This document shows, piece after piece, positions 2,220 through 32,098 of a stretch of 64,000 nucleotides of DNA. Origin of the DNA: Candidatus Woesearchaeota archaeon. GTDB taxonomy: Archaea > Nanobdellota > Nanobdellia > Pacearchaeales > GW2011-AR1. The stretch lies in contig CAZCCD010000003.1 of assembly GCA_964497435.1 (NCBI GenBank), forward strand, positions 53,683 through 117,682, read 5' to 3'. A model generated the notes under the pieces. It was not told the DNA's origin. It saw nothing but the letters and a program-made list of their open reading frames with translations, and searched no databases. Positions within the stretch are counted from its first letter, which is position 1. Each line of letters begins with the position of its first letter. The position numbers and the translations under genes are program-made.

Positions 2220-2747
2220 TCATATAAAGAAACAATTGTCAACTTCTGTTAATGTATCTGAAGCATCGCACTGGTTTCTGTTAACTACTGGTGCTATTTT
2301 TATTGAATCAGGCCTTCCCATTCCAGCCGAGGTTAAATTATATATGTATGTTAAGCCAGAATTTTTTGCAGGAAGAGCCACTTGAGTGTATGGTTTATTA
2401 TAAGGCCGTACATCAGTTACTGTTTTGTTTGTATAAGTAATCTTAAAACTTTTTGTCTGCCCCACTGCTGATACTGAAACTAAAAGCTCTTGAATTTCTT
2501 TATCTCCTATGTCAACTGAAAAAAGAAGGTAATTTGATGTTGCATTATAACAAGTATACTGGTCATTTAATGATACTTTTCCGAATATATCAAAACAACT
2601 TTCACTTTGTTCTAGCTTTTTTTCAGTTATATTATTTACAACAACCCAAAGCACGCCGACTAGTGTGACAGCAATAAGAATTAAAAGAAGGGTTGCAACT
2701 ACTGTCGCCATTCCTATTTTTTCTTTGTCTTTATTAATTTTTTTCAT
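2220..2747 (-). CDS. Archaeal type IV pilin-like protein (class III signal peptide)
   Basis: N-terminus ...KEKIG|MATVVATLLLILIAVTLVGVLWVVV; the rest is N-glycosylation-sequon-rich (N-x-S/T). Confidence 0.6.
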   Translation of the reverse strand: MKKINKDKEKIGMATVVATLLLILIAVTLVGVLWVVVNNITEKKLEQSESCFDIFGKVSLNDQYTCYNATSNYLLFSVDIGDKEIQELLVSVSAVGQTKSFKITYTNKTVTDVRPYNKPYTQVALPAKNSGLTYIYNLTSAGMGRPDSIKIAPVVNRNQCDASDTLTEVDNCFFI

Positions 2748-3227
2748 CTAAAAAACCTCAATTTCATAACTATTTTGTTTTTCATCGCAAGTATGTGTTC
2801 TTTCCCCTTTTTCAGATGTGCCAAGAAGGACAGGGGTCAATATAATACTTTCGGCAGAGCCAGTATATGAACTTATATCTTCAGAATAGCTTCCTCCTTG
2901 AGCAAGACCTTTGTCAGGCCATGTAGATATGTCTTCTAAATCCATAGACTCTCTGCTTCCTCCTCCAACTATTTTTATCTTCATTCCAAAAATAGGGATG
3001 TTTCCGTCGTTAACAATAGACAACTCTCCATTGTAGTAATCAGCCGTAAACTCTACTTTTTGGCATGTTAACTCAATATTTTCTCCTCCGAATTTTGTTA
3101 TTGTTTCTCCTCCTATTCTCCTAAACCATAAAAATATAATCAATGCAATTACAACAACCATTGCCACTAAAAGCACTGTAGCAATAACAGGAGAGACACC
3201 TTTTTTTTCACTCCTATTTTTTTTCAT
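2748..3227 (-). CDS. Archaeal type IV pilin-like protein (DUF361-like class III signal peptide)
   Basis: N-terminus ...SEKKG|VSPVIATVLLVAMVVVIALIIF, the canonical archaeal pilin pattern. Confidence 0.7.
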   Translation of the reverse strand: MKKNRSEKKGVSPVIATVLLVAMVVVIALIIFLWFRRIGGETITKFGGENIELTCQKVEFTADYYNGELSIVNDGNIPIFGMKIKIVGGGSRESMDLEDISTWPDKGLAQGGSYSEDISSYTGSAESIILTPVLLGTSEKGERTHTCDEKQNSYEIEVF

Positions 3228-3264
3228 TGTTTTAAAAAGGTATCCTTATTTTTAAATTTTTATA

Positions 3265-3825
3265 TTAACTTGAACAGCTTAATATTTCTTTGATTTTTTT
3301 CTCTGCTCCACAATTTGCAAAATCACGCTTATTTTCTCTTTCCTGCCATCTTGCAGGTGTTATTTCTAATGTTGATATAGGGCCTACATTATTTAAATTG
3401 TAAATATGAGTTATTTCGTTTCCAGGATAAAAAGAGTTGTTGTTTCCTTCAGCAAAAAGCACAGCTTCCCTGAATTTATATACATTTCCAGTATTAACTA
3501 GACTATCTATTAAACTTATTGTTGCCTGTTTTTCAGGATTGTCACTGGCCTTTATTATATATCCAGCAATATCAAACCTTCCATTATTGACTAGAGTTAT
3601 ATTCAGCACGCTGCCTGTGCAGTTGTAAAAATAACTTTTAACTCCTATAGATGTTCCATCAGGACATTCAATCTTTTCTTGAGGAACATAAGATTTCATC
3701 CACATATAGAGTATTCCGCCCATTACAACAGCTATGGCTACTAAAAGCACATATCCTATTAGCTCGCTTACACCGCTTCTACTTTTCCAAAATACCTTAG
3801 TTTGTCGCAACATAAATTTCACCAT
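3265..3825 (-). CDS. Archaeal type IV pilin-like protein
   Basis: N-terminus ...KSRSG|VSELIGYVLLVAIAVVMGGILY. Confidence 0.6.
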   Translation of the reverse strand: MVKFMLRQTKVFWKSRSGVSELIGYVLLVAIAVVMGGILYMWMKSYVPQEKIECPDGTSIGVKSYFYNCTGSVLNITLVNNGRFDIAGYIIKASDNPEKQATISLIDSLVNTGNVYKFREAVLFAEGNNNSFYPGNEITHIYNLNNVGPISTLEITPARWQERENKRDFANCGAEKKIKEILSCSS

Positions 3826-4333
3826 TTATTTCTTGAGATATTATGAAATAAAAATTTTCTCCTTTTCTTATTTCAAAAGTGTAATTTGTATCATATTTCT
3901 GGACATTTATTACATACTTAACAGGGCTCCCATATGAAGTTATACTTGATGGAATTGTTATCTTGTTTCCATTATCATATGTAAATGTATCCATATTAAT
4001 TACATCGGGGCCTATTGGTGGTGTTGTCCTGTTTCCTACTATGTATATTATTTCAACATCTTCTCTGACATAACTCGAGAAATTCCTTGTGAAGCTATTC
4101 CACGAATATACTCCAGTATATGCTCCTTGATTTAATATTTTCCCACTTTCAACACCCAATTCTTCAGCAAGTTTTTCTACTCTTGTATTGATTATTTTTT
4201 TTGAAGTGTTTGTTATTAATATAAGGCCTGCCATGAGAGCTATTATGGCCATTGCAGCAATTAAATAAATCTGACCTCTTTTATTCGACCACGCCTGGAC
4301 AAATTGACCTCCTTTATCCTCTTTTTTAATCAT
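3797..4333 (-). CDS. Archaeal type IV pilin-like protein
   Basis: N-terminus ...SNKRG|QIYLIAAMAIIALMAGLILI (KRGQ motif). First gene of a co-directional pilin-pilin-pilin-pilin-pilin-ATPase array. Confidence 0.65.
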   Translation of the reverse strand: MIKKEDKGGQFVQAWSNKRGQIYLIAAMAIIALMAGLILITNTSKKIINTRVEKLAEELGVESGKILNQGAYTGVYSWNSFTRNFSSYVREDVEIIYIVGNRTTPPIGPDVINMDTFTYDNGNKITIPSSITSYGSPVKYVINVQKYDTNYTFEIRKGENFYFIISQEINGEIYVATN

Positions 4334-4337
4334 TAAT

Positions 4338-4375
4338 AAAATAAGAAAATGTATTATTTAAAGTTAATTAAAAAT
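4338..4375 (-). promoter_or_regulatory. Putative archaeal TATA-box promoter for the pilin operon
   Basis: Minus-strand TTTAAATAAT about 25-30 nt upstream of the ATG at 4333. Confidence 0.3.
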
Positions 4376-4442
4376 AAAATAAATATAGAGACAAGAACAA
4401 TTTGAATTAATTAAAACTAAAAATCATTTAATCTGAGTTTAC

Positions 4443-4702
4443 GTAGACTCAGAGGTTTGCTGCTTAAAACACCAAAAAGTTTTTCTTATTCTTTCTCGGT
4501 TTTGCGACCCGCCAAGCACCTTAACAAATGTTTAGGGCTGCTCCGATCAAGGCCTGACCCATTTTGCATCTGCAAGATCAAGACGGACAAAACGTCAACG
4601 TCCGAATAAGGGCTTACTGATATTCCAATCACGCCCCTCCTTACAGTCTGCCATAAAGCCCATTTGCAAGCAGCGGAGGGCTAACCCGCCAACCTAGTCT
4701 AC
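4443..4702 (-). ncRNA. Signal recognition particle RNA (SRP/7S RNA), archaeal type (boundaries approximate)
   Basis: A GC-rich island in AT-rich DNA. The minus strand has GGGUCAGGCC...GGAGCAGCC, matching the conserved helix-8 motif GUCAGGUCC/GGAAGCAGCC. The 5' GUAGACU pairs with the 3' AGUCUAC to form a terminal helix. A TATA-like TTTTTAAATAAA sits about 30 nt upstream on the minus strand. Confidence 0.65.
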
Positions 4703-28989: not shown

Positions 28990-29322
28990 ATGAATGGGAA
29001 TTTAGAGTATTTTGTGCAAAAGATTAATAGGTATTCTTCTAGTAATATAGAAATAACTGATTATTGCAGGGAAAAAATGAGCCAAAGAAATATTGAAGAG
29101 AGTTTGATTATCTCTACATTGTTCTCAAAAAATCTTCATTATGCTGAAGAACAATTAAAAAAACATAAAGGAACTGCTGAAAAGAGATATAAATTAATAT
29201 TCCCTATAAGTTCTAAGTATAATCTAATTATTATAGTCGCATTTTATCAAAAGGTTTTAAAAGTTGTGAATGTTATTAAAACTAGTAAGAAGTTGGAGAA
29301 ATTATGGAAAAAGCAGAAATAA
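28990..29322 (+). CDS. DUF4258-family protein (putative toxin of DUF4258/DUF2283 pair)
   Basis: 110 aa; overlaps the downstream DUF2283 gene by 19 nt, the typical pair arrangement. Confidence 0.5.
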   Translation: MNGNLEYFVQKINRYSSSNIEITDYCREKMSQRNIEESLIISTLFSKNLHYAEEQLKKHKGTAEKRYKLIFPISSKYNLIIIVAFYQKVLKVVNVIKTSKKLEKLWKKQK

Positions 29323-29657
29323 AGGTAATGTATGACAAAGACGAGGATATTTTGTCTTTGTTCAAGGAAAATAGGAAGGCCAAACTGAGCCAGGAGATTA
29401 ATCTACCGGATGGTGACCTAGTTGTTGATTTTTCCTCTGACGGATTAGTCGCAGGATTAGAGTTCTTCAACGCATCAAATTATTTTCCGTTTCTAAAAAA
29501 TGTGAAAGTTAATAATATTAGAGCTAAAATGAGCATAAAATATGGAGAGAATGCAATTAACATCTTTTATAATGTAATGGCTTCAGGAGAGAAAGATCTA
29601 CCTCTCAAACAGATTATAATTTCCCCATATAGTAAGAAGTTGGTGTTGGAGCATTGA
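29304..29657 (+). CDS. DUF2283-family protein (putative antitoxin partner)
   Basis: MEKAEIKVMYDKDEDILSL...DGDLVVDFSSDGLVAGLEFFNAS matches the DUF2283 pattern (MKIxYDxEADxLYI...GxIVGIEIxxAS). Confidence 0.6.
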   Translation: MEKAEIKVMYDKDEDILSLFKENRKAKLSQEINLPDGDLVVDFSSDGLVAGLEFFNASNYFPFLKNVKVNNIRAKMSIKYGENAINIFYNVMASGEKDLPLKQIIISPYSKKLVLEH

Positions 29658-29702: not shown

Positions 29703-30470
29703 TTAAATTAAACTATAATTTCCTTTTCCACTAAATTTTAACAATCCTTTGTCTCTTAATATTTGCAGTTGCTGTCTAATTTTTGCTTTAACATGGCTAT
29801 TCTTTGGATGAAGTTTTGACAATTCAACCTCATGTTTGTAAACATCTTGTAGATTAAATCGTCTCTTGTTTAATGAATGGATAGTATTTAGGATGTCACA
29901 TGTCCAACCCCTATCGTTTAAAGGTAATTTCCTCATAAAATTAATTTGCTTCCATTGCGACAATATTTTTTCTTTTTTAATTATATCTCCCTCTTCTATC
30001 ATGATTATCTTCCCTTCTGGTGGAATTTTGTTAATCAAAATGTTACATCCTACCCATCCAGCTCTTTTAGCGTTTTCTGAAAGAGGCTTCCTTTTCTCAA
30101 TAATTGATTCAGTAAAGAAGAAAAAAGGAATTAAATATAAATTTTTAACTAAATAATCTAAAGTGTACTGTAATAAAAAGAAGTTTGGTCTAAAATTATT
30201 TTTTATAGACTCAATCATTACTTTGTGAGCCCCATCATTTATTTTCTTTCCAAAATTATTTTTTTGGCTTTTTAATTGAAACTTTTCTTCACATCTTGGA
30301 CAGAAAAAATCATCGATAGGGTTGTTATTTGGAAAAGCTAAAATTTTCCTATTTGAACAATTTGGACAAAATATGTTTTTTCCCACCCACTTTTCTGTTA
30401 TAACCCTAACCCTCTGACTATTACTCTTGTACTTTTGAAACACTTCATTTTCAAAAATAGATAAATTCAT
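29703..30470 (-). CDS. DpnI-family methyl-directed (G-m6A-TC) type IIM restriction endonuclease
   Basis: YKSNSQRVRVITEKW, CPNCSN...FFCPRCEEKFQLKSQKNNF, INDGAH, RPNFFLLQYT, RKPLSENAKRAGWVGCNI, RGWTCDILNTI, and C-terminal wH KIRQQLQILRDKGLLKFSGKGNY. These closely parallel S. pneumoniae DpnI as recalled from memory. Confidence 0.7.
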   Translation of the reverse strand: MNLSIFENEVFQKYKSNSQRVRVITEKWVGKNIFCPNCSNRKILAFPNNNPIDDFFCPRCEEKFQLKSQKNNFGKKINDGAHKVMIESIKNNFRPNFFLLQYTLDYLVKNLYLIPFFFFTESIIEKRKPLSENAKRAGWVGCNILINKIPPEGKIIMIEEGDIIKKEKILSQWKQINFMRKLPLNDRGWTCDILNTIHSLNKRRFNLQDVYKHEVELSKLHPKNSHVKAKIRQQLQILRDKGLLKFSGKGNYSLI

Positions 30471-30547
30471 AGGACATATAGATTATTATTATTCATAAAT
30501 CTTTTGTTGATGATCATCTTTAAATATACTTATCGATTAATAAAAAT

Positions 30548-30865
30548 ATGAAAATAACTCAATTTACTATCCAGAGAACATTTTTTGTGCAACATAATGG
30601 AAAAATTTATTACGTGGATTATCTTAATTCAGATGGTCATATTCTTGGTTTATTAAATAGAAATAATTGGGAAATCTACAACGAAGATTCTAATGAGCTA
30701 AATATTTATTCCTTTAAGGGCGACTCTAAGAAGAAAGAGAAGGAGACAAATGACAATAGAAAACTCTTTATTAGATTAGTCAATTTTTGCATAAAACATT
30801 TTGATAATTATCAACCCTTAAAAGAAAAGACAAAAAAAGGGGAGATAAAATTGAAGAGAGCTTGA
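30548..30865 (+). CDS. Hypothetical protein (first of a tight uncharacterised pair)
   Basis: 105 aa, no motif; stop is 1 nt from the next start. Confidence 0.45.
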   Translation: MKITQFTIQRTFFVQHNGKIYYVDYLNSDGHILGLLNRNNWEIYNEDSNELNIYSFKGDSKKKEKETNDNRKLFIRLVNFCIKHFDNYQPLKEKTKKGEIKLKRA

Positions 30866-30866
30866 A

Positions 30867-31094
30867 ATGACAACTAACATAGATACAGGGGAACAAATAC
30901 CTCCATGTAAAAATCATCTTTGGCTTTATATGAAAACATTAAAACATGAAGACGGACGAGAAGGTTATATGTTGTATTGTCCTTTTTGTTGGCAAAAGAC
31001 AATTCACATCCCTGATTTTTCAGAAGAAGAATTTGTGAAAATGGTTTTTGAAAAGTATGATAAATCAAAGATTGGGAGAAGAACAATAAAATGA
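30867..31094 (+). CDS. Hypothetical small Cys/His zinc-binding-like protein
   Basis: 75 aa; CKNH...CPFC arrangement. Confidence 0.45.
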   Translation: MTTNIDTGEQIPPCKNHLWLYMKTLKHEDGREGYMLYCPFCWQKTIHIPDFSEEEFVKMVFEKYDKSKIGRRTIK

Positions 31095-31226
31095 CCCCCA
31101 TTTAACCTTTCCCCTCTTCCCCCTCAACTCCGCCGTCTACATCCTCTACTCCCTAACTTCTGATGAGATAAAAATAGTTGAGGAGAGTCTGAAATGATGG
31201 CAAAATCCTGAATTTCCTTAACCTAT

Positions 31227-31739
31227 ATGTCTACAGAAAGTTTTATAAATAATGTAGACATATATAATCTTATGGTTTATACAGAGATTCAGGAAAGAAA
31301 TAATAAGAAGTATTTTTATAGAGTTATTTCTATCAGAAAAAGAAATAGAGTTTCAAAAAAAAGAAAATACTTAGGTGTTAACTTATCTGTAAAAGAATTA
31401 ACTAAAAAAGAAAAAAGAGCAGATGAGGAGTTTAGAGTAAAAAATGAGGATGCAAATAAAAGAGCCATAGAAAAAATAAAGCCAAGAATAATTAAAATTT
31501 TAAAGAAAAATAAGATAAAGAAGGCAGGCATATTCGGAAGTTTTGTAAAAGGAAAACTGAAAAAAAATAGTGATATTGATATTTTAATAGAACCAGCAAA
31601 GGGGATGGGTTTAGAATTTGTCGGGGTTAAATTAGAGTTAGAGGATGAACTTGGAAGAAAGGTTGATTTAGTCACTTACAAAGGGATCCATCCTTTAATT
31701 AAAAGAAAGATTTTAGAAGAAGAGATAAGAATATTATGA
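31227..31739 (+). CDS. Nucleotidyltransferase (MNT/MntA-like, Pol-beta superfamily) with basic N-terminal extension
   Basis: GIFGSFVKGKLKKNSDIDILIE reads as GxxGSxxxG...DxDxL. The 5' end lies in an 11-bp inverted repeat (atatgtctaca...tgtagacatat). Confidence 0.65.
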   Translation: MSTESFINNVDIYNLMVYTEIQERNNKKYFYRVISIRKRNRVSKKRKYLGVNLSVKELTKKEKRADEEFRVKNEDANKRAIEKIKPRIIKILKKNKIKKAGIFGSFVKGKLKKNSDIDILIEPAKGMGLEFVGVKLELEDELGRKVDLVTYKGIHPLIKRKILEEEIRIL

Positions 31740-32098
31740 AACGAGGATTAAGATTATTTATAGAAGATATATTAGAATCAATTAGATTAATAGAAAGATA
31801 CGTTAGGAATGTCTCTAAGGAGAATCTCGGCAATGACCAGAAATTAAAAGATTCTGTTGTAAGAAGATTAGAAATAATTGGAGAGGCAGTTAAAAATATT
31901 CCAGATAATTTTAGAGAAAAATATCCAAAAGTTCCTTGGAAAAAAATTGTGGGGTTAAGAGATATTATAATTCATACATATTTTAACATAGACTTCGATA
32001 TTACATGGAATATTATTAAAAAAGACCTTCCAGACCTAAAAGAAAAAATGTTGAAAATAAAAACTGAAGTAGAAGCCGAAGAAAAAAGAGGGCAGTAA
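31736..32098 (+). CDS. HEPN-domain protein (DUF86/HepT-like RNase toxin)
   Basis: RLEIIGEAVKNIP...YPKVPWKKIVGLRDIIIH Rx4-6H motif; ATGA overlap with the MNT gene. Confidence 0.7.
   Translation: MKRGLRLFIEDILESIRLIERYVRNVSKENLGNDQKLKDSVVRRLEIIGEAVKNIPDNFREKYPKVPWKKIVGLRDIIIHTYFNIDFDITWNIIKKDLPDLKEKMLKIKTEVEAEEKRGQ

Follow-up and report, generated by a model that had tools for sequence, protein, structure and literature searches.

When two small open reading frames (ORFs) lie one nucleotide apart in a defence island, are they two halves of a single system, or has recombination merely placed them side by side? This question is raised by ORF1 and ORF2, which lie in a 64,000-nucleotide stretch of DNA (hereafter, the window) from a Candidatus Woesearchaeota archaeon (assembly GCA_964497435.1, contig CAZCCD010000003.1, positions 53,683 to 117,682). 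A preliminary description of the window reported the two ORFs, a CKNH...CPFC zinc-binding arrangement in the second, and their location between a DpnI-like gene and an MNT/HEPN pair. Based on their position and tight coupling, it proposed them as a candidate novel toxin-antitoxin (TA) or defence accessory pair. The coordinates, lengths and single-nucleotide gap (TGA-a-ATG) were all confirmed, and Pfam and PADLOC matches agree with the reported location:

29703-30470, minus strand: dpnI, gene for a methyl-directed (G-m6A-TC) restriction endonuclease (Pfam; PADLOC mREase_II, 2.2e-87)
30548-30865, plus strand: ORF1, 105 amino acids, ATG start
30867-31094, plus strand: ORF2, 75 amino acids, ATG start; zinc-ribbon-type protein (CxxH...CxxC) that has a C-terminal helix and a basic tail
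31227-31739, plus strand: MNT nucleotidyltransferase (Pfam Polbeta/NTP_transf_2)
31736-32098, plus strand: HepT (Pfam HepT-like, 6e-31)

Judged by co-occurrence and family content, neither ORF1 nor ORF2 is the toxin or the antitoxin of the other. The explanation we consider probable is that they are independent restriction-modification (R-M) accessory genes of DPANN (Woese-/Pacearchaeota-type) archaea, which were joined by recombination in the lineage of the window only. There they would form a leaderless bicistron, divergent from dpnI, whose products modulate their R-M neighbours.

Homologous loci were gathered by exact-protein look-up and by scans of GTDB genomes (16 loci) and metagenomes of the Joint Genome Institute (JGI; 53 loci). 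The organisms are labelled as Pace-, Woese- or Nanoarchaeota, and some of the metagenome-assembled genomes (MAGs) as 'Methanosarcinales'. Collapsing the ORF1 copies at 95% nucleotide identity left 57 distinct copies, 53 of them with at least 300 nucleotides of downstream sequence. ORF2 follows ORF1 in one of these 53, the window alone. Elsewhere, the two genes occur together only in L098-L100, whose ORF1 protein is identical and whose sequences derive from related sequencing runs. The five other contexts in which ORF2 was found contain neither ORF1 (0/5) nor DpnI (0/5), and no likeness to a known toxin or antitoxin family was detected in either protein. Thus, the counts and the family searches contradict the proposal of a TA pair. 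The broader idea of a defence accessory pair survives in part, since each gene separately recurs beside R-M genes; what is lost is the partnership. The conserved partner of ORF1, which the preliminary description overlooked, is the adjoining divergent DpnI gene.

Both ORFs are genuine genes under purifying selection, with ratios of nonsynonymous to synonymous substitution (dN/dS, Nei-Gojobori estimates) of about 0.06-0.4. They are neither ORFans nor devoid of coding signal: homologues form 21 clusters for ORF1 and 24 for ORF2, and dN/dS lies below 1 in the computable comparisons. The ORF1 clusters, defined at the 90% identity level, are 44-63% identical, and several are labelled as Nanoarchaeota MAGs. 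A profile search that covered 1.84 billion representatives returned 90 clusters at 50% identity; three long repetitive proteins in this search (P0099, P0134 and P0135) were discarded as low-complexity or repeat artefacts, not relatives. For ORF1, dN/dS was 0.10-0.40 in three computable comparisons, synonymous sites being saturated in the remainder. The ORF2 homologues are 63-90% identical, with dN/dS of 0.06-0.14 and dS of at least 1.2. Neither ORF has a meaningful match in Pfam, NCBIfam, PADLOC or PHROGs, in agreement with the earlier failure to recognise a family, and a Pfam scan of every alignment member of both families yielded nothing significant. ORF1 comprises two parts:

Residues 1-90, plus strand: ORF1 core, with an NSDG...NRxNW loop and an LIxFCIKHFxDY helix
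Residues 91-105 (30818-30865), plus strand: AbrB-like tail of ORF1

The invariant residues of ORF1 include N27, S28, N37, R38, W41, C81, K83, F85 and Y88. Its AlphaFold2 (AF2) model consists of three beta strands and one long helix, and no helix-turn-helix (HTH) was found by Pfam or in the model. There are weak matches to DUF4926. A relationship with DUF2283 was considered and rejected: a VD..SDG..GL-type motif occurs in both, but the hhalign probability is 2.2% over 14 columns.

In ORF2, the zinc-binding arrangement noted earlier is conserved across the family. Its knuckles are C14-K-N-H17 and C38-P-F-C41; C38, C41 and H47 are invariant, and the conservation of C14 and H17 reaches at least 90%. 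In the AF2 model (predicted local distance difference test, pLDDT, 76), strands flank both knuckles. On this model, ORF2 is a zinc-ribbon-type small protein with its two conserved knuckles on predicted beta hairpins. Matches to ENOD40 come from a short motif of the CWQK type and stay under the curated cutoff; this assignment was rejected. A DNA-mimic anti-restriction role was ruled out for both proteins by a family median isoelectric point of about 7.7 in each case. One ORF2 homologue, P0040 (63% identity), is assigned to a MAG of a Candidatus Paceibacterota bacterium, of the Candidate Phyla Radiation (CPR); either the gene crossed domains, between ultra-small cells that co-occur, or the MAG was wrongly binned.

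ORF2 typically closes R-M or defence operons as their last cistron, often with translational coupling to the preceding gene, and its partners differ from one operon to another. The contexts outside the window are the following:

L102-L104: HsdM, HsdS, a one-nucleotide gap (TAA-g-ATG), ORF2
L015: a TaqI_C-type methylase/specificity protein (Pfam 2.2e-13), which ends in ...VIEESLK and a stop, with an ATGA overlap with the ORF2 start
L012: an SNF2/HNH helicase, an N6_N4 methylase, a 55-amino-acid AbrB/MazE-like gene (2.7e-5), 24 nucleotides, ORF2
L007/L008: an SLFN-type helicase with MazG, an Excalibur-like membrane protein, ORF2, MazE/ParE, an integrase
L038: a gene fragment without assigned identity, upstream of ORF2

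In L008, an N6_N4 methylase lies near ORF2. The sequence of ORF2 is tightly constrained despite these varied partners, which suggests a generic target, whether DNA, RNA or a conserved host factor. Small membrane-anchored proteins of the Excalibur-like type (DxDxDGxxCE) flank ORF2 at two loci, upstream in L007 (5631-5960) and downstream in L012 (6210-6470).

How, then, did ORF2 come to lie one nucleotide behind ORF1? Nucleotide similarity between the ORF2 of the window and other ORF2 loci is confined to approximately 30850-31086. On the ORF1 side, the tail KKGEIKLKR matches the AbrB-like tails of the ORF1 homologues P0019 and P0005, and in L041 an AbrB-like ORF1 tail has an ATGA overlap with another gene downstream. 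On the ORF2 side, the methylase-ORF2 junction of L015 recurs almost unchanged in the 17 nucleotides that precede the ATG (ATTGAAGAGAGCTTGAA), though in another reading frame. Three features mark the joint:

30851-30870, plus strand: left copy of a 20-nucleotide imperfect direct repeat, TTGAAGAGAGCTTGAAATGA, which spans the ORF1 stop and the ORF2 start
31117-31197, plus strand: relic, no longer functional, of a TaqI_C-type R-M methylase 3' end, FPLNSAVYILYSLTSDEIKIVEESLK followed by a stop, in the spacer between ORF2 and MNT
31178-31197, plus strand: right copy of the direct repeat, 85% identical to the left copy, formed by the last 20 nucleotides of the methylase relic

The relic, made up of the final 26 codons and the stop, is 50% identical over 26 amino acids to the protein upstream of ORF2 in L015 (E 0.003, tblastn on the window), and its presence in the spacer shows that this site has lost or exchanged an R-M gene. 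As read from these sequences, the chimeric junction shows that recombination, at a sequence resembling a methylase 3' end, brought ORF2 into the space between ORF1 and MNT, by insertion or by exchange. In its one-nucleotide spacing, ORF2 keeps the coupling geometry that it has with other upstream genes. Thus, the tight coupling, previously taken as a sign of partnership, is a property of a recombination joint with direct repeats.

The ORF1 family is recurrently linked to divergent restriction nuclease genes, most of which are DpnI. Twelve of the 22 ATG-type copies with at least 900 nucleotides upstream stand head to head with a DpnI gene, across a spacer of 54-94 nucleotides, and divergent DpnI-ORF1 arrangements occur overall in at least 16 distinct ATG-type loci. 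At three further DpnI loci, all F3-type, a small gene named F3 lies between DpnI and ORF1. The DpnI proteins of ORF1-linked loci share 42-97% identity, a value that rises with the identity of the ORF1 proteins (r=0.69, Mantel p=2e-4), which fits the inheritance of both genes as one unit. The DpnI of the window is full-length, with matches to PF06044 (1.1e-70, profile positions 4-182 of 183) and to the winged-helix domain PF17726 DpnI_C (5.9e-28, positions 2-68 of 70). The loci with DpnI, and those with divergent neighbours of other kinds, are as follows:

Head-to-head DpnI-ORF1 loci: the window, L001, L005, L023, L025, L034, L041, L045, L049/L052/L053, L051, L058, L063, L065, L074 and the contig of P0005
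L018, divergent neighbour of ORF1: type I HsdR (Pfam ResIII 5e-44, EcoEI_R_C 3e-31)
L070, divergent neighbour of ORF1: BglII-family endonuclease (3.6e-34) and a winged HTH (wHTH) gene
L057, divergent neighbour of ORF1: DUF3800 protein
L020, divergent neighbour of ORF1: 320-amino-acid protein with no Pfam match and a GIY-YIG-like motif read by eye

At L034 (4668-6395), the DpnI-ORF1 unit lies between an N6_N4 methylase fragment (68 amino acids) and a Dam-type MethyltransfD12 fragment (44 amino acids), the latter on the opposite strand and overlapping the 3' end of ORF1. The fragments give the impression that the unit took the place of a GATC-methylating R-M system. The arrangement is reminiscent of the 'Dam-replacing' behaviour after which PF06044 is named.

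Stand-alone ORF1 genes have a common promoter, A(t)GATCATCTTTAAATA. In the window, the region between the start codons of dpnI and ORF1 contains:

30492-30499, minus strand: putative dpnI TATA box TTTATGAA, read from the sequence and centred about 25 nucleotides before the dpnI ATG
30509-30518, no strand: 10-bp palindrome GATGATCATC, which contains GATC at 30512-30515, at the B recognition element (BRE) position of the ORF1 promoter
30519-30526, plus strand: ORF1 TATA box TTTAAATA, beginning 29 nucleotides before the ATG, with its function assigned from the archaeal promoter consensus

The distance from TATA box to ATG is 29-31 nucleotides in 21 of 22 distinct ORF1 promoters, which implies leaderless mRNAs; given the position of its putative TATA box, the dpnI mRNA would be leaderless as well. 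The palindrome of the window lies between the two back-to-back TATA boxes, which are 19 nucleotides apart. GATC is found at the same register in 20 of the 22 distinct stand-alone promoters, the exceptions being a one-nucleotide shift or GATT. GATCAT is as informative as the TATA box, at 1.4-2.0 bits, compared with 0.2-0.5 bits for the flanks. The element has been kept while flanks and synonymous sites have become saturated, and only some 13 of the 22 promoters have it in the longer form of the palindrome ATGATCAT. Among 50 TATA-like boxes in the 64-kilobase window, a GATC within eight nucleotides upstream is found at one, that of ORF1 itself; the element is therefore not a generic BRE. We have moderate confidence that, in the window, ORF1 and ORF2 would be co-transcribed as a leaderless message from this GATC/TATA promoter. 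A scan of the window for bacterial-type promoters and terminators was uninformative, the source being an archaeon.

The BglII-family locus L070 has its own arrangement. The gene order (2674-4452) is endonuclease, 82-amino-acid wHTH gene, ORF1 homologue and methylase fragment, and the promoter GATC is located just after the TATA box, not before it. BglII-type sites (AGATCT) contain GATC.

If ORF1 and ORF2 are independent R-M accessory genes, then ORF1 could be a controller-like modulator or safety factor for the adjacent nuclease, acting either directly on the enzyme or via the divergent promoter that the two genes share. The level of ORF1 expression could depend on whether the promoter GATC is methylated or occupied. 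ORF2 could be a nucleic-acid-binding zinc-ribbon modulator, co-expressed with whichever R-M operon precedes it. Our confidence is low for the role of ORF1 and likewise low for that of ORF2.

Several observations weigh against this explanation. That the two proteins modulate or regulate neighbouring R-M genes is a best guess, which we infer from sequence. Approximately 40% of the ATG-type ORF1 copies have no DpnI upstream, and the linkage was sampled from the ORF1 side, by fetching loci via ORF1 and not via archaeal DpnI genes. The GATC promoter also accompanies ORF1 copies whose neighbour is another gene (L018, L020, L021, L057, L064, L072 and L073), which leaves its specific link to DpnI unproven. 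The ORF2 sample comprises six distinct contexts, the window included, and in L007 and L038 no R-M gene lies immediately upstream of ORF2. Finally, an ORF1-like gene is located directly upstream of wHTH-MNT and HEPN genes in 6 of 14 F3-type loci, in L079, in L024 and in the window.

Could both genes simply travel with the island? As selfish or hitch-hiking cassette genes, they would serve their own spread or an unrelated cellular role, and their proximity to R-M genes would reflect recombination sites. The variable neighbours, recombination scars and direct repeats are in keeping with this, as are the AbrB-like tails common to junctions and the integrase and ParB near ORF2 in L007 and L012. The ORF2 family is also narrow and highly similar, with one homologue labelled as a CPR bacterium. 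However, the divergent geometry and spacer length with DpnI are kept across the whole range of DpnI identity, with correlated divergence, the ORF1 promoter element is conserved, and three independent R-M operons have ORF2 specifically at their 3' end. A viral origin finds no echo in IMG/VR contigs or INPHARED phages, where neither ORF1 nor ORF2 has relatives, nor does a plasmid origin in PLSDB, which was searched for ORF2 only. We therefore regard hitch-hiking as unlikely.

A different role for ORF1 is raised by the F3-coupled members of its family. At 17 loci, ORF1 lacks an ATG, GTG or TTG start and begins with ATC or ATA, one nucleotide past the stop of F3, a conserved gene of 58-62 amino acids; the junction consensus is AAAGGCGAT-TAA-A-ATC-AAA. 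These loci are:

L022: 5811-6267
L027: 4618-5044
L028: 3224-3662
L029: 5823-6270
and 13 further loci

The F3-coupled ORF1 frames are mostly intact (77-96 codons). L024 has the same F3-ORF1 geometry with an ATG, and P0061 and P0077 are single-ORF proteins in which an N-terminal extension precedes the ORF1 domain. The sequence of the junction hints at a programmed +1 frameshift or, alternatively, at coupled re-initiation on a non-AUG codon.

F3-type ORF1 copies often precede cassettes of wHTH-MNT and HEPN genes. Tandem arrays of an ORF1-like gene, a wHTH-MNT gene (about 190 amino acids) and a HEPN gene (about 160 amino acids) occur at L028 (3200-6300), L029 (5800-8500), L030 (2900-6700) and L031 (1400-3100). 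The arrays hold pseudogenised ORF1 copies, and further MNT genes in them are closely preceded by short relics of the 3' end of ORF1 (LIxFCIKHFxDY), which indicates cassette duplication and shuffling. ORF1 might thus serve the downstream MNT-HEPN module, as a third component or regulator, and not DpnI; the adjacency counted above and the relics before further MNT genes would be explained. Yet most DpnI-linked loci have no MNT downstream of ORF1, and in the window ORF2 and the methylase relic stand between ORF1 and MNT. Moreover, MNT/HEPN cassettes are very abundant in such islands, so that adjacency to them is less specific. We consider this role quite improbable.

The promoter itself invites a more elaborate scheme. 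DpnI cleaves only methylated GATC, and for this reason a GATC at the position of the ORF1 promoter contacted by transcription factor B (TFB) is suggestive. The GATC might be a methylation sensor: a foreign (e.g., viral) Dam-type methylase would alter the binding of TFB or of a repressor and switch ORF1, and maybe dpnI via the 19-nucleotide inter-TATA region. ORF1 would then tune or restrain the nuclease, and ORF2 would be a generic zinc-ribbon modulator at the 3' ends of R-M operons. We find this scheme very doubtful. If it is true, a modification-dependent restriction enzyme would be under an archaeal controller circuit that does without an HTH.

That ORF1 and ORF2 constitute a novel two-gene TA or defence module, in which the one-nucleotide coupling reflects co-function, is scarcely credible: the gap, the small sizes, the setting among TA and R-M genes and an arrangement that is stable within the window's own population (L098-L100) are in its favour, but the genes do not co-occur beyond that population, the junction is chimeric with direct repeats on its flanks, ORF2 is equally tightly coupled to unrelated upstream genes elsewhere, and no TA or PADLOC family matches were found.

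Several features surround the two genes in the window. No recognisable TATA box was found between ORF2 and the MNT start at 31227, which points to a possible ORF1-ORF2-MNT-HepT transcript; on this reading, MNT and HepT may be co-transcribed with ORF1 and ORF2. A perfect 12-nucleotide inverted repeat, TATATGTCTACA / TGTAGACATATA, with arms 17 nucleotides apart, lies across the MNT start codon (31224-31264), and a half-site, GACATATA, is also present at 30473-30485, abutting the dpnI start codon. These could be an operator common to MNT and dpnI, or else an RNA hairpin over the MNT start. Adjoining dpnI (28990-29657) is an unassigned 110-amino-acid ORF that overlaps a DUF2283 gene. A DUF2283 gene with a 111-amino-acid neighbour lies near another DpnI-ORF1 unit (L042:1979-2684), and the combination may be a recurrent neighbour in these islands. 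The edges of the defence island are housekeeping genes, read from their translations as a diphthine-synthase-like ORF and an aIF5B-like GTPase. Across the whole window, several 4-bp palindromes are strongly depleted relative to base composition (ACGT 0.17, GTAC 0.25, TCGA 0.40 and GATC 0.44, the last with 83 sites observed vs 189 expected), which is consistent with long-term restriction pressure.

To our knowledge, it is unclear in any organism how a DpnI without a partner methylase is kept safe or regulated. What is new here is two small-protein families that track R-M genes, together with a conserved archaeal promoter that contains DpnI's target sequence. Both families are new markers for annotating archaeal defence islands. 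R-M systems are reported to be under-represented and little studied in DPANN archaea (PMC12988326). The unit of DpnI, ORF1 and GATC promoter is a specific lead in a lineage whose defence biology is poorly known. The locus also carries a caution, as close spacing of small ORFs in an island can be a recombination scar and not a partnership.

Compared with known systems, ORF1 and ORF2 resemble type II TA modules in being two short, close ORFs in an island with bona fide TA pairs (the DUF2283 pair and MNT/HepT), but they differ in having neither conserved co-occurrence nor a toxin or antitoxin family signal. ORF2 alone is reminiscent of Lar-like restriction alleviation proteins and of the N-terminal zinc ribbon of MqsA: it has about 75 amino acids and a CxxH/CxxC ribbon, and it lies beside R-M genes. 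It has no significant match to the Lar family, the Lar-like PHROG 6795 reaching E=0.13 and Pfam containing no Lar hit at E<=1. In BFVD, entries named 'Restriction alleviation protein' or 'MqsA' match ORF2 at E of about 0.2-0.5 with template-modelling (TM) scores below 0.45, which is not significant. In contrast to Lar-like proteins, ORF2 is encoded by the host at the 3' end of an R-M operon, and not by a phage.

For ORF1, the nearest likeness in gene order is the pneumococcal DpnI cassette (dpnC and dpnD), in which a second gene, dpnD, whose function is unknown, is located beside the DpnI gene (PMC4471560). Compared by description only, dpnD and ORF1 are both companion genes kept beside a DpnI endonuclease gene; they differ in orientation and in the domain of life.

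The C proteins of R-M systems, such as C.PvuII, C.AhdI and C.BglII, are Xre-type HTH dimers. Like them, ORF1 is small and tightly linked to a restriction endonuclease gene, and this with several types of nuclease. A partly palindromic element also overlaps its own promoter, although binding by ORF1 is hypothetical. Unlike them, ORF1 is archaeal and has no Xre-type HTH, its partner DpnI lacks a cognate methylase that would have to be expressed at the right time, and L070 already has a separate wHTH gene by its BglII-like nuclease. As for the promoter, Dam-methylation-sensitive promoters with GATC in core elements are known from the IS10 transposase, pap and agn43, all bacterial sigma-70 promoters of Dam+ hosts. 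There, as here, GATC lies inside a core element, and adenine methylation could alter the binding of an initiation factor or regulator. The GATC of ORF1 differs in lying in an archaeal BRE, beside the gene for a destroyer of methylated GATC, and its sensitivity to methylation is hypothetical.

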